A stretch of 64,000 bases of DNA from an uncultured Bdellovibrionales bacterium (lineage in GTDB: Bacteria; Patescibacteriota; Minisyncoccia; Moranbacterales; UBA1568). Of the stretch, positions 3,585 to 60,060 are shown piece after piece. The stretch lies in contig CAZOKB010000003.1 of NCBI GenBank assembly GCA_964580285.1, positions 31,403-95,402 on the forward strand, read 5' to 3'. How positions within the stretch are numbered: position 1 is the first letter of the stretch; each line of letters starts with the position of its first letter. Under the pieces are notes generated by a model, which worked only from the letters and a program-made list of their open reading frames with translations, searched no databases and was not told where the DNA came from. Made by a program: the position numbers and the translations under genes.

Positions 3585-3612
3585 TTGACAATCAATCCCT
3601 TTTTGCTATAAT
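3585..3612 (+). promoter_or_regulatory. consensus sigma70-type promoter of the Rrf2 gene with overlapping palindrome
   Basis: TTGACA(3585-3590)-N16-TATAAT(3607-3612). Palindrome TGTCAAccctcTTGACA overlaps the -35 hexamer. Confidence 0.5.
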
Positions 3613-3660: not shown

Positions 3661-4071
3661 ATGCGCGTCTCCAAAAAAACTTATTATGGTCTCCGAGCTA
3701 TCACTGCGCTCGCCGAACACGGCGAGCTTTCCGTGCATGATCTGGCCGCTCTGGAAAATATGCCTGAAGACTACCTTCATAAGATTCTCCAGATCCTCAA
3801 ACGCCATGGTATTGTTTCCTCCGAGAAGGGTGCGCATGGAGGCTACACTCTGGCCCGACCGACTACTAGCGTCTCCGTTTGGGATATCGTCTCGACACTT
3901 GATGGCGGTTTCAAAAGTTTCGCTCCACCCCGACTGACTAACGTCTCCCCTTATCCAAAACTCACTCACTGCCAGACCAATCAGGTCTGGAGAGAACTTG
4001 AACAGAAAATAGAAACTACCCTGTCCGCTACGACCCTCGACCAGATAATCACTCCTACCATCCATCCTTAA
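3661..4071 (+). CDS. Rrf2-family transcriptional regulator (IscR/SufR-like)
   Basis: KKTYYGLRAITALA…SVHDLA…EDYLHKILQILKRHGIV…GAHGGYTLAR, the typical Rrf2 wHTH signature. Lies directly upstream of sufC. Confidence 0.85.
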   Translation: MRVSKKTYYGLRAITALAEHGELSVHDLAALENMPEDYLHKILQILKRHGIVSSEKGAHGGYTLARPTTSVSVWDIVSTLDGGFKSFAPPRLTNVSPYPKLTHCQTNQVWRELEQKIETTLSATTLDQIITPTIHP

Positions 4072-4079
4072 CGAACCCT

Positions 4080-4793
4080 ATGCTCACACTCGAAAAACTT
4101 TCTGTTTCTATCGAAGGCAAGAAGATTCTTCATGATATCTCCTTCGTTTTCAAACCAGGCAAGACCTACGCCATACTCGGACCAAACGGCTCCGGTAAGT
4201 CCACTCTGGCCAGTGCTATTATGGGGCACCCAAAAGTCACTCTTGGCCGGGGCAGTCAGCTTCTGTACGAAAAAAAGAATTTCCGTCGTCTTTCACCGGA
4301 CAAACGGGCCGTACTCGGCATGAGCATGACCTTTCAAAGCCCTCTCACGCTCGACGGCGTCTCTGTCCGTGACCTGCTCCGCCTGGCCCTTGAAAAACGC
4401 TATGATCCGTTTGCCCTCCATCAGAAAATCAACGAGGCTGCCGAGAAACTCAAAATCAAAAACGAGCTTCTCTCGCGCTCGCTCAATGACGGCTTTTCCG
4501 GTGGAGAGAAGAAAAAACTGGAAGCGCTTCAGATCGCCCTGCTTGAGCCTCGCTTCGTTCTTTTTGATGAGATAGATACCGGCGTTGACGTCGATGCTCT
4601 GAAAACGATTTCCCACTTTCTCCGCCATGTACTTCCGAAACAAACCACTCTCGTGTTCATCACCCACTCCGCCAAGCTCCTCAAGTACATGCAGCCTGAT
4701 GAAATTCTCGTCATCAAAGACGGTCAACTTGCAGCAACTGGCGGACCAGAACTCGCCACCACTATCGAAAAGAAAGGTTTTGAAAGTTTCTAA
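4080..4793 (+). CDS. sufC: Fe-S cluster assembly ATPase SufC
   Basis: Walker A GPNGSGKST, ABC signature FSGGEKKK, Walker B LFDEIDTG. SufC-like length. Confidence 0.9.
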   Translation: MLTLEKLSVSIEGKKILHDISFVFKPGKTYAILGPNGSGKSTLASAIMGHPKVTLGRGSQLLYEKKNFRRLSPDKRAVLGMSMTFQSPLTLDGVSVRDLLRLALEKRYDPFALHQKINEAAEKLKIKNELLSRSLNDGFSGGEKKKLEALQIALLEPRFVLFDEIDTGVDVDALKTISHFLRHVLPKQTTLVFITHSAKLLKYMQPDEILVIKDGQLAATGGPELATTIEKKGFESF

Positions 4794-4803
4794 ACTATGC
4801 ATA

Positions 4804-4890
4804 AGGATTTTTCCTCCTGATCGTTCTGTTGGTAACCGTTGGATGCTTTAGCGCCACAGGGAGACAACAGAATGTCAGAATGAAAAATCC
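4804..4890 (+). promoter_or_regulatory. conserved ~88-nt structured intercistronic element, copy 1 (sufC-sufB)
   Basis: Outer 16-bp imperfect stem ggatttttcctcctga/tcagaatgaaaaatcc enclosing the conserved core gttctgttggt…ccacagggagacaac…ATG. See findings. Confidence 0.55.
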
Positions 4891-4907
4891 TACTCCATAT
4901 ATAAAAT

Positions 4908-6317
4908 ATGTCTCGTCGTAAGCCAACCAAAAAAATAGACCTCGGCGATTACCAGTACGGATTCGCCATGCCCGAACGCTCGGTACAAAAAACGAATACC
5001 GGGCTTTCGCAGTCAGTCGTTCTAGAAATTTCTCGCATCAAAGAAGAAAAGGCCTGGATGCGTGATTTTCGTGTGCGCGCTTATGAGCGCTTCACAACCC
5101 TGCCGCTTCCAGCTTGGGGCGCCGATCTTTCGAAGATTGATTTCGACAGCATCACCTACTATCTCAAAGCCACCAACGAACAATCCAAAACCTGGGATGA
5201 GCTGCCTCCAGAAATTAAGGAGACGTATGATCGTATTGGCGTGCCCGAGGCTGAGCGAAAATTCCTCGCGGGAGTCTCAGCACAATACGAAAGCGAAGTG
5301 GTCTACGAAAGCATCGAGAAGACACTCTCTGCCAAAGGCGTCATCTTCTGCGATATGGACACGGCCGTACGGAAATATCCCACGCTGGTCCGGGAATATT
5401 TCGGTAAGCTTATCCCGCCACATGACAACAAGTTCGCCGCGCTCAACTCGGCCGTCTGGTCCGGCGGATCATTCGTCTACGTGCCAAAAGGTGTGAAAGT
5501 CGATCTGCCGCTCCAAGCCTATTTCCGCATCAATTCGGAAGCCTTCGGACAATTCGAGCGCACCCTCATCATCGCCGACGAAGGCAGCTCCGTGCACTAT
5601 GTCGAGGGCTGCACCGCACCGATCTACCGCACGAGCTCGCTCCACTCCGCTGTCGTCGAGATCTTCGTTAAGAAAAACGCGCACGTTCGCTACACCACCG
5701 TCCAGAACTGGTCGAAAAATATCTATAACCTCGTCACCAAACGGGCTCGTGCCGAAGAAAATGCTTCCATGGAATGGATCGATTGCAATATCGGATCCGG
5801 CGTCACGATGAAATACCCCGCTGTCTATTTGGCAGGCCGTGGTGCCCATGGTGAAGTTCTCTCTATCGCCTATGCTGGTAAGCACCAGCACCAGGATACT
5901 GGTGCGAAAATGCTCCACATCGCTCCAGAGACCACTTCGCGTATCATCTCAAAGTCCATCAGCAAAGATGGCGGTCGCTCTTCCTACCGCGGTCTCGTAC
6001 ATATCGGTAAAGGAGCCACGGGAGCGAAAACCTCCGTTGTCTGCGATGCGCTCATCCTCGATCCAGAGTCGCGGTCCGATACCTATCCGACCATGCGAGT
6101 CAACGAGCCCTCTGCTCGCGTCGAGCATGAAGCCACGGTCGAAAAGATTTCCGCTGAGAAGCTCTTCTACCTCATGTCTCGCGGACTGAAACAAAAAGAC
6201 GCCGAGGGGCTCCTCGTCAACGGCTTTCTCGAACCAGTCGTTAAAGAAATTCCTCTCGAGTATTCCATCGAGCTCAACCGCCTCATCAATCTCGAAATGG
6301 AAGGTAGTGTAGGATAA
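4908..6317 (+). CDS. sufB: Fe-S cluster assembly protein SufB
   Basis: 469 aa. Collinear SufB-like sequence (…FVYVPKGV…[19 protein letters not shown]…). Confidence 0.9.
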
Positions 6318-6320
6318 AGA

Positions 6321-6410
6321 GAGATTTTCCCTCTTGGTTGTTCTGTTGGTGACCGCTGGATGCTTGAGCACCACAGGGAGACAACGGAATGCCAAGAGGG
6401 AAAATCTCTG
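6321..6410 (+). promoter_or_regulatory. conserved structured intercistronic element, copy 2 (sufB-sufD)
   Basis: Perfect 18-bp outer stem agagattttccctcttgg/ccaagagggaaaatctct around the same conserved core. Confidence 0.55.
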
Positions 6411-6446
6411 AAATTGAACAGCGCATGCATTGATTTTTGTGCTTTT

Positions 6447-7022
6447 ATGAAACTCATCAACATCTCAACTGATACAAAATCCCTCTATCGACTCAAGGAA
6501 AACGAGAAGATAGTTTTTTTCTTGTTTAATCGTGGAGGCGAGATCACTTTTGATCTTCGAGGAAACCATTCAGAAGCGCATATTATAGCCCTCTTCGATC
6601 TTACAAACGACGCTCGTCTTGAAAGCCGGATCACTCAAATTCATCGCGGTGCAGATACTATTTCTTCCTTTGCTGGACGAAGCATCCTCAGAGGGAATGC
6701 CTCTTGCTCGTGGCAGGGCCTCTTATCAATCAAATCCTCTGCTCTGCATACAGATGCTCATCAAGAAATGAAACATCTGCTTTTGTCCCCTCTAGCCGGA
6801 GCCTTTTCGCTTCCTGCGCTCGAGATCGAACAAAATGATGTCCGCTGCGGACACGCCGCTACCATGAGCGCGCCCGACCCGGAACAGCTCTTTTTCCTAC
6901 AAAGCCGCGGTCTCTCTGAAACCCAAGCTATCGAACTCATCGCCCAAGGCTTTTTCCAGGATATGCTCGAGAAAATAGAAGTTCTGACTGGTGTTAAAGA
7001 AATTCCTGCATTTTCGCTTTGA
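6447..7022 (+). CDS. sufD: SufD-like Fe-S assembly protein (short form, 191 aa)
   Basis: Downstream of sufB. C-terminal SufB/SufD-family beta-helix/helical region (…LEIEQNDVRCGHAATMS…EQLFFLQSRGLSE…). Start chosen at the first ATG after element copy 2. Confidence 0.65.
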   Translation: MKLINISTDTKSLYRLKENEKIVFFLFNRGGEITFDLRGNHSEAHIIALFDLTNDARLESRITQIHRGADTISSFAGRSILRGNASCSWQGLLSIKSSALHTDAHQEMKHLLLSPLAGAFSLPALEIEQNDVRCGHAATMSAPDPEQLFFLQSRGLSETQAIELIAQGFFQDMLEKIEVLTGVKEIPAFSL

Positions 7023-7091
7023 TATCCTCTCTGAGTTCGTGCTCATTCCCGTACAAAAGCAACCCGAGATACGAATCCATATTCTTCTCAT

Positions 7092-7358
7092 TCACCCGCC
7101 AAACCCGTACTCACGATCCCACCGATTGTCAGGCTTATCGTAGTTCGTATTGAGCCACCGACCATCATCGCTGCGGTTGAGATTGAGCAAGTTCGCATCT
7201 CCATCGGAAATGTGTAGTTTTCCTTCTCTGCCACCATCCCTCAAATACTTTCGGGACTGAATCGAATTCGTGATCGAAATCACCGAGAAAACCCCACCAA
7301 GTATCTTCATTTTTTGATGAAATACCCGCCTGCCATCAGACAGGTCTGCATACATCAC
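7092..7358 (-). CDS. hypothetical small ORF (possibly a gene remnant, together with ORF 7365..7571)
   Basis: Two adjacent minus-strand ORFs with no recognisable similarity. The second overlaps a terminator hairpin. Confidence 0.2.
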   Translation of the reverse strand: MMYADLSDGRRVFHQKMKILGGVFSVISITNSIQSRKYLRDGGREGKLHISDGDANLLNLNRSDDGRWLNTNYDKPDNRWDREYGFGG

Positions 7359-7504
7359 CCTATCTCACGCCGTAACAAAAGATATTCTCGATGTATGGAT
7401 ACTGGATTCGGCCGCAAACAGCCGTGACTGTTTGCAGATTCGCCTACTACCATCCAAATTACCCGGAGCCGTAACCACGAGCGTTCCATCTGTCACTGGT
7501 ATTG

Positions 7505-7545
7505 TATCAAAAAAATGAAAACCCGCGCATACATGTATGCGCGGG
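7505..7545 (-). terminator. rho-independent terminator for gene 7599..8180
   Basis: Perfect 24-nt palindrome cccgcgcatacatgtatgcgcggg, followed on the minus strand by TTTTCATTTTTTT. Confidence 0.7.
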
Positions 7546-7598
7546 AAAGATTCCGAGGGTCCAAGGGACAAAGCATAGAAGTCCCAAAGACTGAAGAA

Positions 7599-8180
7599 TC
7601 AGAGAGCCTTGCGGACAGCGAGAAACCGAAAGTGGAAGCTCCAGTCAACGTCCCAGCGATCGAGGTTCAGGTCCCGCTTGACGTCACCCCTGTCGAGGCA
7701 CGGCACGTAGCGACTGCCACCGATCGTGCACGAGGAGCCGAGTCCGACGATCGGATACTTCCGCTGCTCCTCGCGATACTTCGCTCCGAAAGCAAGCAGG
7801 TGTTCGATCTTGGCCGCTTCCCAGCCCTCGACTTCGATCGCTCGCATCGCATCTTCCGACGAGATAAAGCGGCCGAAATGGAAGAGTCTGGTTTCGTACC
7901 TGGTTTCGCCATCGCCGACGATCGGGAATCGATCGTGAGTAATGTCACCATTGGCCCAGTCGTACCGGCCAGCAGTGATCATCTCAGCGAGTGAGAGGCC
8001 GAGGTTGACGGTGATTGTGGTGAGATGGTTGGTATCAGCCTTCTTTGAGAGAACTGACCGGAGCTTTTCTTCGTCACGGATCAGGCTCATGATATCCTTC
8101 GGCTCGGCGCCGATTTTCGCCAGAGCGATCGCGAGCTCGTGCATGAGTCCGACAGAAAAGTCATTAGCGGTAACAGCCAT
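7599..8180 (-). CDS. hypothetical protein (193 aa from M11)
   Basis: Start MAVTANDF with an AAGGAG RBS 8 nt upstream. No domain recognised. Inserted between sufD and sufS on the opposite strand. Confidence 0.5.
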   Translation of the reverse strand: MAVTANDFSVGLMHELAIALAKIGAEPKDIMSLIRDEEKLRSVLSKKADTNHLTTITVNLGLSLAEMITAGRYDWANGDITHDRFPIVGDGETRYETRLFHFGRFISSEDAMRAIEVEGWEAAKIEHLLAFGAKYREEQRKYPIVGLGSSCTIGGSRYVPCLDRGDVKRDLNLDRWDVDWSFHFRFLAVRKAL

Positions 8181-8358
8181 GATATATCTCCTTCCGATTG
8201 ACTCATCCATAATATGGACACGTCGTGCCAGCGGGCTCTCGATTCTTCGAGTTTGCCATAGCGCAGAGGATTTCAGCCTTCTAAAAGCTTTTGTGCTATG
8301 ACAACTCTCTACTTTCTCTATTGTTAAAGAAATTATATTATAGCATTTTATTAGACTC

Positions 8359-8387
8359 TTGTCAATTATACTAGGGTATGGTATAAA
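8359..8387 (+). promoter_or_regulatory. candidate promoter upstream of sufS
   Basis: TTGTCA-N17-TATAAA in an AT-rich 380-nt intergenic region. Confidence 0.35.
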
Positions 8388-8469
8388 GGAGTGAGTCGAA
8401 ATCGGACTATTTTAGTCTACATTAAAAAACCCTATTCTTAAGCTAAAGAATGCCTTAAAGTTTGATTGT

Positions 8470-8562
8470 CTGTCATTGCGATCCATCAGCTGACGGAGAA
8501 GCAATCTGGCTTTTACACTATTTATTCTGGATTGCTTCGTCGAAGACTCCTCGCAATGACAG
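8470..8562. repeat. long hairpin (MITE/REP-like) repeat, copy A
   Basis: Arms ctgtcattgcga…gaagcaatc / gattgcttc…tcgcaatgacag. The right arm (33 nt) is the exact inverse of the left arm of copy B at 27925. Confidence 0.6.
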
Positions 8563-8593
8563 AAAAATGAAGGCTTATTCAAGTGAGTAATCT

Positions 8594-9844
8594 ATGCCCA
8601 TTACTCCAGATATCAAAAAGCATTTCCCGATTTTCAAACACCAGCCTGATTTGGTGTACTTAGATTCGGCTGCCACTGCCTTGAAACCACAAGCCGTCAT
8701 GGAAACGGCGCGCGGATACGAAGAAACGTACTCAGCCAATATCGGCCGTGGTCTCTATCCGATCGCCGAACAAGCCACCGAAGCATTTGAAGCAGTCCGT
8801 GATCAGACTGCTCGCTTCATCGGGGCGACTTCCCGCGAAATTATCTTCACGAAAAACACGACTGACTCCCTCAATATGGTAGCCATATGGATCGCTCCAC
8901 GGCTCCGTACAGGAGACAATATCGTCATCACTGCCGCCGAGCACCACGCCAACTATCTCCCCTGGGTCGAGCTTGCGGAAGCCAAAGGTATCGAGCTGCG
9001 TGTTGCTCCTTTTAATACGGAGGGGCTCATCGAGAGAGACACTCTCGCCTCCCTCGTCGATTTGCGCACGGTACTCGTCGCTTTCGGCGCCGTCTCCAAT
9101 GTCTTCGGCGCGATCAATCCGGTGCGAGACCTTATACAAGCGATCAAAGCGAAAAATCAGCAAGCGCTCACCATCATCGATGCTGCCCAGGCCGTCGGCC
9201 ATATCCCGATCGATACCCATGACTGGGATGCTGATTTCGTTGCTTTTTCGGCTCACAAACTCTACGGGCCAACCGGTGTCGGAATCCTCTATGGCAAAGC
9301 CATGCTTCTAGAAACCCTTCCTCCCCTCACCTTTGGTGGCGGCATGGTGCTCGATGCTTGTCCACCAAAAGATGGGCGGGCCAGTTCTCCGACTCGAGAA
9401 TACAAGGATATCCCGTACCGCTTCGAGGCAGGGACACCCAATATCTCTGGCGTCATCGGCTGGGGCGCCGCGCTCGATTTTCTCGAAAAGACAGGGATAG
9501 AAAATATTCGTGCCCACGAAGCATCACTCGTTACATATGCCCTCGCCAAGCTCCAAGAATCTTTCGGGGAAAAAATTCAGCTCCTCGGACCACAAGAACC
9601 AACGCTACATAGCGGACTGATCGCTTTTACTCTGGAAGGCATTCATCCCCACGACCTTGCCCATATTCTTGGTGAGCAAGGCATTTGCATTAGGGCCGGC
9701 GAACACTGCGCCAGCCCCCTGCATCGCAAGCTCAACCTGACCGCTACCGCTCGCGTAAGCTTCGGCCTCTACAACTCTTCAGAAGATATTGATACACTCA
9801 TTGAAGGAATCAAAAACGCACGCACCGTCCTACAAAAATCTTAA
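8594..9844 (+). CDS. sufS: cysteine desulfurase SufS (group II)
   Basis: PLP-lysine region SAHKLYGPTGVGILYG; IRAGEHCA active-site cysteine motif. 416 aa. Confidence 0.9.
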   Translation: MPITPDIKKHFPIFKHQPDLVYLDSAATALKPQAVMETARGYEETYSANIGRGLYPIAEQATEAFEAVRDQTARFIGATSREIIFTKNTTDSLNMVAIWIAPRLRTGDNIVITAAEHHANYLPWVELAEAKGIELRVAPFNTEGLIERDTLASLVDLRTVLVAFGAVSNVFGAINPVRDLIQAIKAKNQQALTIIDAAQAVGHIPIDTHDWDADFVAFSAHKLYGPTGVGILYGKAMLLETLPPLTFGGGMVLDACPPKDGRASSPTREYKDIPYRFEAGTPNISGVIGWGAALDFLEKTGIENIRAHEASLVTYALAKLQESFGEKIQLLGPQEPTLHSGLIAFTLEGIHPHDLAHILGEQGICIRAGEHCASPLHRKLNLTATARVSFGLYNSSEDIDTLIEGIKNARTVLQKS

Positions 9845-9861
9845 ACATTGCAAAAGTCTCT

Positions 9862-9949
9862 AAAAGTTTTCTCTGTTGGTCGTTCTGTTGGTGACCGTTG
9901 GATACGAAGTACCACAGGGAGACAACGGGATGCCAACAAAGAAAACTTT
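9862..9949 (+). promoter_or_regulatory. conserved structured intercistronic element, copy 3 (sufS-sufU)
   Basis: Outer stem aaagttttctctgttgg/ccaacaaagaaaacttt with the same conserved core. Its AGGGAG+ATG at 9930 is in frame with sufU. Confidence 0.55.
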
Positions 9950-9968
9950 CTTCAGGAAATGTACCACT

Positions 9969-10331
9969 ATGTCTCTCTATCAGGACCTTATCCTCGACCA
10001 CTACCGCAACCCTCGCAATCAGGGTGTCTTGAAAGCGCCCACTCACAGCGCCGGTGCCCATAACCCAACCTGTGGCGATCGACTCGAGATGCAGCTTTTA
10101 GTAAAAAATGGTATTATTGCCGATGTAAAGTTTTCTGGTTCAGGGTGTGCTATTTCACAGGCAAGCGCATCGCTTCTCTCGGAATTCCTCAAAGGAAAAT
10201 CTCTCGAGGAAGCCCGCACTTTTGGAAAAGACAATCTTTTAGCCCTCTTGGGTGTAACACTTTCTCCAAATCGTTTGAAATGTGCCCTCCTCTCTCTGGA
10301 AACTTTTGATAAAGCCGTAAACAGTAAATAA
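9969..10331 (+). CDS. sufU: SufU/IscU-like Fe-S scaffold (zinc-dependent sulfurtransferase type)
   Basis: MSLYQDLILDHYRNPRN…NPTCGD…GSGCAISQASAS, a SufU-type signature. An alternative in-frame start at 9930 lies inside the element. Confidence 0.85.
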   Translation: MSLYQDLILDHYRNPRNQGVLKAPTHSAGAHNPTCGDRLEMQLLVKNGIIADVKFSGSGCAISQASASLLSEFLKGKSLEEARTFGKDNLLALLGVTLSPNRLKCALLSLETFDKAVNSK

Positions 10332-10337
10332 GAAACT

Positions 10338-10607
10338 ATGGCATGGAAAGATGAAGCGCGCCCAGCTGGCCCAGTGAAGCTCGCCAATGGTTGGACGGTT
10401 GAAGTAGATCCGAATGTGTGTATCGGAGCCGCTCCTTGTACCGCTATCGCTATGAAAACCTTTGCGCTCGATGAAAACGGCAAAGCCGGTGTACTCTCAA
10501 CAGCCGACGAGGATGATAAAGATACTATTCTGAACGCTGCTAAGGCCTGCCCGGTTGCTGCCATTCTTATTAAGGATGAAACAGGGAAACAGATTTTTCC
10601 AGAATAG
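10338..10607 (+). CDS. small mono-cluster ferredoxin
   Basis: 89 aa. CIGAAPC…ACPV pattern resembling single-cluster Fd of the Pyrococcus type. The Ala at the second ligand position suggests a [3Fe-4S] cluster. Confidence 0.65.
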   Translation: MAWKDEARPAGPVKLANGWTVEVDPNVCIGAAPCTAIAMKTFALDENGKAGVLSTADEDDKDTILNAAKACPVAAILIKDETGKQIFPE

Positions 10608-15316: not shown

Positions 15317-15487
15317 AGATTACATATGATTACAATTATACCTATCAAACGAATACGCACCCTCTATCTATCTGCACTCTACCGGGAAACGGAAGGATTT
15401 TTTTCTGATGCCCTACGCTTCCGAGCGTACAGCAAAGAAAAAATCTCTTTCGTTTCCCGGGGAGATATCCTTTCAAAAAACTCTTCG

Positions 15488-19599: not shown

Positions 19600-21201
19600 A
19601 TGGAATATACTCTTCCTCTCCCAGTTTTAGAAACGCTCAAGAGTCTCGAGAAGGCTGGTTTTGAAGCGTATATCGTTGGCGGTTGCGTGCGCGATATCCT
19701 TCTTGGTCGCGAACCGAAGGATTGGGATATCACCACGAATGCCTTGCCTGAACAGATTCAATCTCTCTTCCCCGATCATGTCTACGAGAACACATTTGGT
19801 ACGGTCGGCGTAAAAGTGACTCGCTTCAGCACGTCATCCCGAGCAATAGCCGAGGGATCTCCTGCTAATACCACCGAACCGAAGAAAGAAGAAAAGGAAA
19901 TTATTGAAGTCACCACCTACCGTACCGAAACCGGCTACAGCGATCGACGTCGGCCAGATCAGGTGACCTTTGTTTCTTCTTTGCAAGAAGACTTGGCACG
20001 TCGTGATTTCACAATCAATGCCATGGCAGCCACAATCAGCGAACAATTCTCAGCGAACAATAAACAAGAAGCAATAAACAAGGAGGTCGGTTCGATGTTC
20101 ACTGTTCGCTGTTCGCTGTTAATTGAAGATCCCTTCGATGGACAATCCGATGTACAAAAAAAAGTCATTCGAGCCGTTGGCGACCCGGGAGCGCGTTTTG
20201 ATGAAGATGCTCTGCGTATGATGCGTGCAATCCGCTTTGCCAGCGAACTCCGTACACCTGAAGAGAAAAAAGAAACGCATAATTGGCATATTGATAACAA
20301 AACGCTTACAGCCATCACAGAACGTGCCTCGCATCTCAAGGAGATTTCTCTCGAACGTATTCGGGATGAGTTTTCGCGTATCATTCTTTCCAAGAATCCC
20401 TCTTTTGGCGTAGCGCTTCTCGAAGAAACTGGTCTCTTGAAATATATCGCGCCTGAACTCCGTGAAGGCATTAACGTTGGGCAGAATCTCCACCATATCT
20501 ATACTGTCTGGGAGCATAATCTTCGCGCCCTAGAAACCTGCCCTTCAAAAAAACTCCACGTGCGTCTCGCTGCCCTCTTGCATGATGTTGCCAAGCCGCG
20601 CACCAAAAAAGGCGATGGGTACCGTTCCACCTTCTACAACCATGACCACGTTGGAGCTCGCATGACTCAAGCCATTCTGGCTCGACTCCGGTATCCTCGC
20701 GAAATCATCGATAAGGCCACGCTTTTGGTTGACAATCATCTGTTTTACTATAATGTAGGAGAGGTGACTGAGGCTTCTATCCGGCGACTCGTTAAAAAAG
20801 TCGGGCTTGAAAACATGCACGATCTCATGGATGTGCGTATTGGTGATCGACTTGGCTCAGGAGTACCCAAAGCCAAACCCTACAAGCTCCGCCATCTTGA
20901 GTACATGATCGATAAAGTCTCCAACGACCCGCTCTCGGTCAAAATGCTCAAATTGAACGGGCAGGATCTCATGCAGGAGCTTAGCCTGGCCCCCGGTCCA
21001 AAAATTGGAGCCATTCTTGATGTCCTCCTCGCAGAAGCCATTGAAGATCCTTCTATTAATACCCGTGAAACTCTTTTGGACCGAGCGCGGACACTAGGCG
21101 GACACGATCTCGAACATCTTCGTGCACTTGCCAAAGAACGTATCGAGGAAAAACGCCAAGAAGAAGATGCGGAGATTAAAAAAAGGCACTGGGTAGAATA
21201 A
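19600..21201 (+). CDS. cca: CCA-adding tRNA nucleotidyltransferase with HD domain
   Basis: GGCVRD…DWD polymerase-beta-like head and HD motifs (LLHDVAKP, H…H). Start chosen at MEYTLPLP. Confidence 0.85.
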   Translation: MEYTLPLPVLETLKSLEKAGFEAYIVGGCVRDILLGREPKDWDITTNALPEQIQSLFPDHVYENTFGTVGVKVTRFSTSSRAIAEGSPANTTEPKKEEKEIIEVTTYRTETGYSDRRRPDQVTFVSSLQEDLARRDFTINAMAATISEQFSANNKQEAINKEVGSMFTVRCSLLIEDPFDGQSDVQKKVIRAVGDPGARFDEDALRMMRAIRFASELRTPEEKKETHNWHIDNKTLTAITERASHLKEISLERIRDEFSRIILSKNPSFGVALLEETGLLKYIAPELREGINVGQNLHHIYTVWEHNLRALETCPSKKLHVRLAALLHDVAKPRTKKGDGYRSTFYNHDHVGARMTQAILARLRYPREIIDKATLLVDNHLFYYNVGEVTEASIRRLVKKVGLENMHDLMDVRIGDRLGSGVPKAKPYKLRHLEYMIDKVSNDPLSVKMLKLNGQDLMQELSLAPGPKIGAILDVLLAEAIEDPSINTRETLLDRARTLGGHDLEHLRALAKERIEEKRQEEDAEIKKRHWVE

Positions 21202-21212
21202 CAGGAGAAGAT

Positions 21213-21283
21213 CGGAGTGTTGTATAGTGGTATTACGCACGCTTCGGGTGCGTGTGACCCGGGTTCGATTCCCGGCACTCCGA
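21213..21283 (+). tRNA. tRNA-Pro (anticodon CGG), no encoded CCA
   Basis: Hand-folded: acceptor cggagtg/cactccg, anticodon stem cacgc/gcgtg with loop TTCGGGT, T-arm ccggg-TTCGATT-cccgg. The D-stem is only 3 bp and the variable loop 4 nt. Confidence 0.55.
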
Positions 21284-21622: not shown

Positions 21623-21708
21623 GCCGAGGTGGTGGAATGGTAGACACACTAGCTTTAGGCGCTAGCGGGAGCAATCCCATGGAGGTTCAAGTCCTCTCCT
21701 CGGCACCA
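21623..21708 (+). tRNA. tRNA-Leu (anticodon UAG), CCA encoded
   Basis: Hand-folded: acceptor gccgagg/cctcggc, anticodon stem ctagc/gctag with loop TTTAGGC, long variable arm, T-arm ggagg-TTCAAGT-cctct, 3' ACCA. Confidence 0.75.
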
Positions 21709-27897: not shown

Positions 27898-27924
27898 GAT
27901 ATTTATCTTATAAAGGCTTTATTT

Positions 27925-28006
27925 CTGTCATTGCGAGGAGTCTTCGACGAAGCAATCTAGAAAAATACTCGGGTACCGGATTGCTTCGCAGAGCCTCGCA
28001 ATGACA
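27925..28006. repeat. long hairpin (MITE/REP-like) repeat, copy B
   Basis: Left arm ctgtcattgcgaggagtcttcgacgaagcaatc is the exact inverse of the copy A right arm. Right arm ggattgcttcgcagagcctcgcaatgaca. Lies between the two VirB4-related ORFs. Confidence 0.6.
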
Positions 28007-28026
28007 AAACTGGAACTAACAGCCCA

Positions 28027-58634: not shown

Positions 58635-58746
58635 AACCACCATAGAATCGGAAGGTTGATTTTGGTCCCTTAAAAAGCTATACTGGTCGTACAATGTTGC
58701 CTAAACTTCTGCCCCAAAAAGGTAGCGGCATGGCTCAATAATAGAA

Positions 58747-58793
58747 CCTACGTCAATAAAAACGGTCTCGTGACCGGCACTTATTGACGTAGG
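58747..58793. promoter_or_regulatory. 47-nt inverted repeat with nested hairpin downstream of recombinase (candidate recombination site)
   Basis: cctacgtcaataa-N21-ttattgacgtagg. A third cctacgtcaa copy lies at 58903. Confidence 0.35.
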
Positions 58794-58916
58794 TCGATAG
58801 CTCGAAAGAGTTGTCGGGCAGTTTCGAAAGGAATTGTCGTCCGGTTCGCGGGACCATTTTTGTATCTTAAAAAATGAACCAGCAGTTTTTCAATCAATAA
58901 ATCCTACGTCAAATTT

Positions 58917-59973: not shown

Positions 59974-60060
59974 CGGAAGAGGAGGGATTCGAACCCTCGG
60001 TAGGGTTTCCCCTACGCTTGCTTTCCAAGCAAGTACCTTAAACCACTCGGCCACCCTTCC
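59974..60060 (-). tRNA. tRNA-Ser (anticodon GGA)
   Basis: Hand-folded from the reverse complement: acceptor ggaaggg/ctcttcc (one G-U), anticodon stem cttgc/gcaag with loop TTGGAAA, long variable arm gtaggggaaaccctac, T-arm gaggg-TTCGAAT-ccctc. No CCA encoded. Confidence 0.8.

Follow-up and report, generated by a model that had tools for sequence, protein, structure and literature searches.

A repeated hairpin element of narrow distribution at gene junctions of the suf operon in a Moranbacteria lineage

The locus described here raises the question of why one and the same hairpin-forming element should stand three times between the genes of an operon for iron-sulfur (Fe-S) cluster assembly. The DNA concerned is a 64-kb stretch of contig CAZOKB010000003.1, the whole of which is called the window below, and SufB relatives placed it in Candidatus Moranbacteria (Moraniibacteriota), within the Candidate Phyla Radiation (CPR). 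A covariance model was built from the three copies and run over the window with its speed filters switched off. It matched on the + strand at 4802-4893 (copy 1, 106 bits), between sufC (stop codon 4791-4793) and sufB (ATG at 4908); at 6319-6410 (copy 2, 108 bits), between sufB (stop codon 6315-6317) and sufD (ATG at 6447); and at 9861-9951 (copy 3, 102 bits), between sufS (stop codon 9842-9844) and sufU (ATG at 9969). The distance from the preceding TAA stop to the start of the element was 9, 2 and 17 nt for copies 1, 2 and 3, respectively. An earlier sequence-only reading had placed three copies after the stop codons of sufC, sufB and sufS; these positions were borne out, and the limits were refined by the model matches. 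The comparisons reported below describe a narrowly distributed, recently acquired intercistronic palindromic repeat and not a conserved Fe-S riboregulator.

The element is unannotated and is no chance repeat. The core block GTTCTGTTGGTRACCGYTGGAT, with up to three mismatches allowed, was present at exactly three sites in the 64 kb, with an expectation of 0.00 from dinucleotide shuffles, and the core block CCACAGGGAGACAAC, with up to two mismatches, was likewise present at exactly three sites, with an expectation of 0.08. The near-invariant core that had been claimed for the three copies was thereby confirmed. A fourth copy was not found in the window by the unfiltered search, the runner-up scoring 16 bits compared with 102-108 bits for the three copies.

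The element is about 90 nt long, with a G+C content of 43-51%. Compared with shuffled sequences, the folding energies of copies 1, 2 and 3 corresponded to z values of -6.2, -8.9 and -6.1, respectively, and the minimum free energy (MFE) was -39.8 kcal/mol for copy 1 and -53.8 kcal/mol for copy 2. All copies folded 6-9 kcal/mol more stably on the + strand than on the - strand. The outer arms of copy 2 (6320-6337 and 6392-6409) form a perfect helix of 18 bp, and those of copy 3 (9863-9879 and 9933-9949) are 94% complementary.

Secondary structure was analyzed on an alignment, A3, of five sequences, namely the three window copies and one copy each from the related contigs L097 and L102; these five related sequences represent only three or four independent events. 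The same rod was the MFE fold of all five members. Its outer helix (columns 3-12/82-91 and 14-19/75-80) comprises 16-18 bp and is variable in sequence with pairing kept, and its middle helix P2 (GUUCUGUUG/CAACRGAAU, columns 21-30/65-74) comprises 10 bp and is conserved, with G.U pairs. Above the middle helix, a purine-rich 4x4 internal loop (GUGA/GAGA), a CC/GG mini-helix and a short apical helix P3 with a variable loop were predicted. In copy 2, the consensus fold and the pair counts assign to the conserved core positions 6339-6392 (+), which contain P2 (UGUUCUGUUG / CAACGGAAUG), the internal loop, the CC/GG pairs and P3.

In this alignment, 97% of cells were paired, and the outer helix contained nine of the ten pairs that were altered on both sides. 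The paired-cell and compensated-pair values were reached by none of 500 shuffles, and slid controls gave one or two such pairs. A structured element with compensatory changes, as the sequence-only reading had proposed, is thus supported. Variation in the middle helix was limited to changes from U-A to U.G or from C-G to U.G; the pair G22.U73 was invariant, and U26.G69 was present in four of the five sequences. On the opposite strand these G.U pairs would turn into C.A mismatches, so it is the + strand, the operon's sense strand, that folds. Between the orthologous copies of L097 and L102, two fully compensated pairs (columns 11-83 and 12-82) differ, which indicates that pairing has been maintained in place and not merely inherited from a master copy.

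The ends of the element are terminal inverted repeats with arms of 17-25 nt and 80-100% complementarity; the arms vary in sequence from copy to copy, in contrast to the conserved core. Together, the outer and middle helices make up a duplex of about 26 bp with two single-base interruptions. A hairpin of the RNase III type calls for at least about 20 bp of nearly continuous double-stranded RNA in a transcribed region; the duplex has this length, and the region is predicted to be transcribed.

This prediction comes from the arrangement of signals around the first two copies. A perfect sigma-70-type promoter (TTGACA-16-TATAAT with TG, 12/12 in a consensus scan) is located at 3585-3612 (+), upstream of the Rrf2 gene, and likely drives a transcript with copies 1 and 2. 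On the + strand, no terminator-like sites were found at the sufC-sufB or sufB-sufD junctions, and the element itself has no U-tract terminator. Because a perfect promoter lies upstream and terminators are absent from these two junctions, the elements would be expected inside operon transcripts.

Several other interpretations of the fold and of its core were considered. The inner helix CUGU(U)GGU/ACCACAG (CUGUUGGU/ACCACAG), on which the sequence-only reading had relied, draws on the same bases as the middle helix; it showed no covariation and was broken in L097 and L102, and folds in which it was enforced were less stable than the fold with GUUCUGUUG/CAACRGAAU by 10 kcal/mol or more. The remark that such features are not typical of a protein-binding DNA site fared better, and the element is not taken for one. 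Operator sites for Rrf2 were rejected because the compensated changes hit both half-sites together, and protein operators do not evolve in this way. A K-turn or loop-E reading of the internal loop, judged by eye, was abandoned because the key G is A in copy 1 and the consensus is not matched. A small protein was rejected as well: the frames that remain open over the core are not the same in every copy, and a 1-nt indel occurs in the apical loop. A T7-type promoter was likewise set aside: GGGAGAC gives a 12/23 match, but the variable apical loop would occupy key recognition positions, and this match of the core to the T7 promoter/leader is judged coincidental.

A search of the whole window against Rfam 15 at the gathering threshold returned only three tRNAs and LOOT. 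When copy 2 was searched at E<=10, only generic miRNA-precursor hairpins were matched, at 27 bits or less compared with thresholds of 40-96 bits. The impression that the element corresponds to no known motif was thus confirmed for Rfam, and the element is a covariation-supported RNA motif absent from that database.

Relatives of the suf operon bear on the question of conservation. Orthologous copies were present at L097:5625-5717 (84 bits) and L102:113-205 (83 bits), on contigs reached through SufD homologues. Both are located at the sufB-sufD junction and start directly after the sufB TAA, like copy 2. Copy 2 is the only copy with orthologues; copies 1 and 3 were found in the window species alone, and no element was present at the sufC-sufB junction of the relatives.

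By SufC, SufB, SufS, SufU and Rrf2, the window groups with L011, L098, L103 and L101 (SufB 90-91% identical), and L097 groups with L104. The element is present in the window, L097 and L102 and absent from L011, L098, L101, L103 and L104. The sufB-sufD junctions measure 4-17 nt in L011, L103 and L104 and contain unrelated fillers in L098 and L101; the sufS-sufU junctions measure 4-7 nt in L011, L097 and L104; and the sufC-sufB gap is 6-8 nt in L097 and L104 and 106 nt of unrelated sequence in L011. The hairpins lie between cistrons whose coupling is tight in relatives. A further 80 SufB loci of relatives (986 kb) gave no member with either the three-copy or the five-copy model. In total, more than 90 suf loci of Moranbacteria and CPR were covered and 3 had the element, which does not amount to conservation at an orthologous position. 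The operon evidently works without the element, because the closest relatives and the 80 SufB loci lack it. A riboregulator belonging to the Fe-S operon, as first proposed, is not supported by these closest relatives (SufB 90-92% identical), whose junctions are compact or unrelated. The element is instead a lineage-restricted insertion, recently acquired and absent from the original operon.

The similarity around copy 2 gave an indication of how it arrived. The first 240 nt of sufD in the window are nearest to L097 (69-78%, compared with 60-68% for the others). Most of sufB (from about nt 360 onward), the 3' half of sufD, and sufS and sufU are nearest to L098, L011 and L103. The SufD protein is accordingly a mosaic, its 5' 240 nt being like the L097 clade and its 3' half like L098 and L101. 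In L102, SufD is L011-like, yet the intergenic segment is 93% identical to that of L097, with 69-78% identity in the flanking coding DNA. Lateral recombination is suggested because the flanking similarity around copy 2 disagrees with that of the other suf genes. On the simplest reading of these sequences, the element-bearing sufB-sufD segment would have moved between lineages by homologous recombination in its flanks and would then have been duplicated within the operon. An alternative for the 93% intergenic identity is strong purifying selection on the whole spacer.

Outside suf, no copies were found in about 79 kb of the species (the 64 kb, about 9.6 kb to the left on L107 and about 5.7 kb to the right on L117), in the 17-kb L097 contig or in 1.12 Mb of relatives. 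A genome of about 1 Mb is usual for CPR bacteria; if this size is assumed, the 79 kb are a small part of the genome, and there is room for up to about 40 further copies. All five known copies are in suf operons and in sense orientation, and three copies within 5 kb would be very unlikely under random placement. [quoted passage not shown]

Wider collections added one locus already known. Among GTDB species genomes, the 22-nt core had no exact match. In metagenome contigs, a core pattern of 19 specified bases gave one true match, which was the same copy 2 (L094, a 1-kb contig); five other pattern matches were without a model match and were taken as chance. Viral contigs gave no matches, and blastn found no match among plasmid and phage records. 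Concatenated six-frame translations searched against a protein database returned nothing at E<=10, in a peptide search so insensitive that the known P0002 N-terminal extension was also left unscored. A search for arm-like inverted repeats yielded the three copies only and no wider family.

By analogy with known repeats, we favor, at about an even chance, the explanation that the element is an intercistronic hairpin of the ERIC/Correia/REP kind, probably serving in mRNA processing or stability. It would be transcribed as part of the suf mRNA and would fold on the sense strand into a rod-like hairpin. The sufB-sufD copy would have moved among Moranbacteria lineages through recombination in the conserved flanking genes, and within the window species copy 2 would then have been duplicated to two further junctions of the same operon. 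Folding would compact the inserted 90 nt such that the upstream stop and the downstream start, which lacks a Shine-Dalgarno (SD) sequence, are no more than 15-43 nt apart in space, and this may account for the tolerance of the insertion in an essential operon and for selection on the stem. The duplex of about 26 bp could act as a processing site of the RNase III type or as a barrier to 3' exonucleases, thereby setting the relative stability of the cistrons.

Several points weigh against this explanation. Co-transcription, cleavage and the effect on stability are all inferred, and the location of all five copies in suf, with none elsewhere, is not what a generic repeat predicts. Between copies 1 and 2, divergence counted on A3 was about 12% in the core and about 38% in the outer helix. 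Such slower evolution of the core among paralogues goes beyond what RNase III alone would require; the processing model does not account for it, which leaves room for a specific partner. Compensated changes in an inverted repeat can also arise by DNA-level template switching between the arms, and the five sequences correspond to three or four independent events only.

The alternative that survives best, although we consider it unlikely, is that the element is selfish at the level of DNA, either a MITE or a single-stranded DNA hairpin as in REP/RAYT or IS200/IS605 systems, its RNA fold being a by-product that does little harm in suf junctions. Its patchy presence and absence among close relatives, the several near-identical copies in one genome, the inverted terminal arms and the other hairpin repeat families in the same genomes and the same junctions would all be expected on this view. 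The G.U pairs of the fold do not speak against it, as the corresponding G.T pairs are tolerated in single-stranded DNA hairpins too.

However, a shared target-site duplication is lacking: copy 1 can be read as TA...TA, but no matching direct repeat flanks copies 2 and 3 or those of L097 and L102. Conservation is lowest in the terminal arms, and a transposase reading the ends predicts the opposite. Among the open reading frames (ORFs) of the suf neighborhood, the region covered by the Pfam scan, no transposase was seen. Dispersed copies were missing from the 79 kb of the species, from 1.1 Mb of relatives and from the viral, plasmid and phage collections, and the compensated changes in the orthologous copies argue for selection in place.

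A dedicated suf riboregulator is somewhat less probable still. Its core would bind an iron- or Fe-S-linked factor or ligand and thereby coordinate translation or decay of sufB, sufD and sufU, in the manner of multiple iron-responsive elements (IREs). All five copies lie in suf in sense orientation with none in about 74 kb of other DNA of the species, among paralogues the core has changed less than the outer helix, compensation keeps the structure in the orthologous copies, and the intergenic segments of L097 and L102 are 93% identical compared with 69-78% for the flanking coding DNA, all of which fits such a role. However, the closest relatives and 80 further SufB loci have the operon without the element, which is hard to reconcile with such a role. 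Conservation does not extend to the ATG, the genome is SD-poor, the true starts lie outside the structure, and there is no candidate partner for the core. A variant would be a portable RNA module specific to Fe-S operons, whose core is read by a factor or metabolite of iron status and which spread by recombination and duplication through the benefit of coordinated post-transcriptional control; this we regard as rather improbable.

Much less credit can be given to a device for translational coupling or re-initiation, in which ribosomes that terminate upstream would unwind the outer helix, load at GGGAGA-AUG and, after translating a mini-ORF, pass on to the next gene. The arrangement GGGAGAC-N9-AUG is indeed found in four of the five copies; the AUG is paired within the middle helix, and one half of the GGGAGA belongs to the CC/GG mini-helix and the other to the internal loop. 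The mini-ORFs read as the sequence-only reading described them: that of copy 1 (ATG at 4872, +) has 3 codons, and its stop overlaps a second AUG (AUGA), which counts in favor of this reading; that of copy 2 (ATG at 6389, +) has 14 codons; and the ATG of copy 3 (9930, +) is in frame with sufU.

The claim that each copy carries a functional SD and ATG of its own nevertheless fell. ATA replaces ATG in L102, and the mini-ORF of L097 runs out of frame across the sufD start, leaving no common geometry among mini-ORFs of 3 codons, of 14 codons, in the sufU frame and out of frame over the sufD start. The true starts lie 15-43 nt downstream, those of sufB, sufD and sufU 15-37 nt beyond the hairpin, outside the structure and without an SD. 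In the window, GGAG/GAGG at -20 to -4 preceded 1 of 44 long ORFs, compared with a background of 7%, which describes a genome very poor in SD sequences. GGGAGA is better read as part of the purine-rich strand that contributes to the helices and the internal loop than as a ribosome-binding site. From the overall interpretation first given to the element, its structure and compensatory changes are therefore retained, and the SD+ATG, the operon riboregulator and the inner helix are given up.

A self-cleaving ribozyme of a new type, or some other RNA with a catalytic or ligand-binding role between cistrons, is hardly to be expected: small ribozymes are known between genes in operons and the core is conserved and unpaired between variable helices, but no Rfam ribozyme or riboswitch matched at E<=10, no junction was predicted in the simple rod-like fold, and the distribution is very narrow.

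The host operon as a whole extends over 3661-10607 (+), as judged from Pfam matches and from comparison with L011. Pfam identified the Rrf2 gene (3661-4071), sufC (4080-4793), sufB (4908-6317), a short sufD (6447-7022), sufS (8594-9844), sufU (9969-10331) and a ferredoxin gene (10338-10607), all on the + strand. SufD has 191 aa only, which is just the C-terminal half of the SufBD core. Compared with the compact operon of L011, in which sufD and sufS overlap, the two genes are split in the window by an opposite-strand insertion of 1.5 kb at 7022-8594.

This insertion contains a gene on the opposite strand (7599-8210, 203 aa) with no match in Pfam, a perfect promoter at 8365-8337 (-) and a terminator at 7545-7522 (-). 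Positions 7102-7420 share 97% identity with the template-repeat region that a diversity-generating retroelement (DGR) has at the same site in L098 (L098:7425-10031). The L098 element has an RVT_1 gene and a pair of template and variable repeats, with mismatches almost only at coding-strand adenines. The insertion in the window is without a reverse transcriptase and thus looks like a DGR remnant. A link of the hairpin element to this remnant was rejected, since L097 and L102 have the element and no sufD-sufS insertion was seen there (in L102, only the start of sufS is visible).

Three further explanations for irregularities of the operon were discarded. An alternative genetic code with UGA recoding had been suspected from broken ORFs after sufD; the gap is the opposite-strand insertion, and code 11 gives intact suf genes. 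A SufB-SufD readthrough fusion was considered because the spacer is open and in frame in the window, but L097 has TAG in that frame. Long tblastn matches that might have indicated an intein in sufB of relatives reflect SufB/SufD paralogy.

Other repeats were observed in the same genomes. A second, unrelated hairpin repeat occurs at 8466-8566, directly upstream of sufS, and at 27923-28009, with arms CTGTCATTGCGA / TCGCAATGACAG and z of about -5; many contigs of the same species break off less than a few hundred bases from it, as would be consistent with a repeat in multiple copies. L101 has its own A/C-rich and G/T-rich repeat in two copies, at L101:1699-1836 (sufB-sufD) and L101:5071-5174 (sufS-sufU), the first of which is a strong hairpin (z -5.1). 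Because L101 carries its own repeats there, suf junctions seem to be recurrent sites of landing or retention for hairpin repeats.

A hairpin at 15382-15460, with 25-nt arms of 84% complementarity, lies between two - strand ORFs whose positions match those of the genes called in L097 and L104 for the small and large subunits of exonuclease VII. The similarity of its arms GGATTTTTTTCT / AGAAAAAATC to the suf element's outer helix is weak (16 bits, E 0.085), and its interior is different. At 20037-20125, the repeat finder detected short GTTCGCTG / CAGCGAAC units, both inverted and direct, in a cluster. The structured RNAs reported by Rfam were LOOT RNA (RF03000) at 58698-58838 (+), with 53.7 bits compared with a gathering threshold of 46.4, and the tRNA genes at 21213-21283 and 21623-21705 (+) and at 59974-60060 (-).

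If the processing or stability explanation is true, small CPR genomes with packed and coupled operons still accept hairpin repeats between essential genes, and selection keeps such insertions tightly folded. The locus would then be a natural case of intercistronic RNA structure that is tolerated or exploited in SD-poor bacteria. It would also illustrate how a non-coding segment can pass from one lineage to another by recombination in conserved genes on either side. In practice the reach is limited: only three genomes carry the element, all from uncultured organisms, and the operon of sister lineages functions without it.

When compared with known systems, the element shares single traits with several. 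The early genes of phage T7 are separated by reiterated intercistronic RNase III hairpins that punctuate the polycistronic mRNA and consist of a lower stem, an internal loop that is conserved, and an upper stem; in contrast to the present element, these are phage-encoded, fixed parts of the transcript, and no sequence relationship exists. The IREs of eukaryotic iron mRNAs resemble it in that several copies of one small hairpin, in which unpaired bases are conserved and stems covary, occur in mRNAs of one pathway. The hallmark of the IRE is a CAGUGN apical loop with a bulged C, whereas here the apical loop is the variable part and there is no known binding protein.

REPs are linked to RAYT transposases, have a conserved GTAG and are present in hundreds of copies per genome. 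The REP/BIME hairpin, for instance that of malE-malF, is like the element in being an intercistronic hairpin able to stabilize upstream mRNA (PMC3184786). REPs differ in being G+C-rich palindromes that form small stem-loops (PMC3184786), far shorter than 90 nt; the element has about 90 nt, 43-51% G+C and no GTAG at its ends.

ERIC/IRU sequences are imperfect palindromes of about 127 bp in Enterobacteriaceae that are co-transcribed and reported to change mRNA cleavage or stability (PMC3184786). They belong to the same class of about 100 nt and form a long imperfect hairpin in transcribed intergenic regions, including operons just after stop codons, and their presence or absence likewise varies between related genomes. 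Unlike the element, which occurs in one operon type, ERIC sequences are dispersed in many unrelated loci and flanked by TA target duplications (PMC3184786); in the element the core and not the ends is conserved, no target duplication was seen, and there is no sequence similarity.

Correia elements (CREE, NEMIS) of Neisseria differ in their many dispersed copies, conserved 26-bp terminal repeats, TA duplication and ability to create promoters, none of which was found here. They are like the element in having inverted-repeat arms around a core and in being co-transcribed, as is presumed for the suf copies. The RNA hairpin of the Correia element binds RNase III and is then cleaved or protected, with control of the adjacent genes as the outcome (PMC2649163). 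By analogy, RNase III binding of this type is judged the most likely mechanism by which the hairpins in the suf junctions would act.

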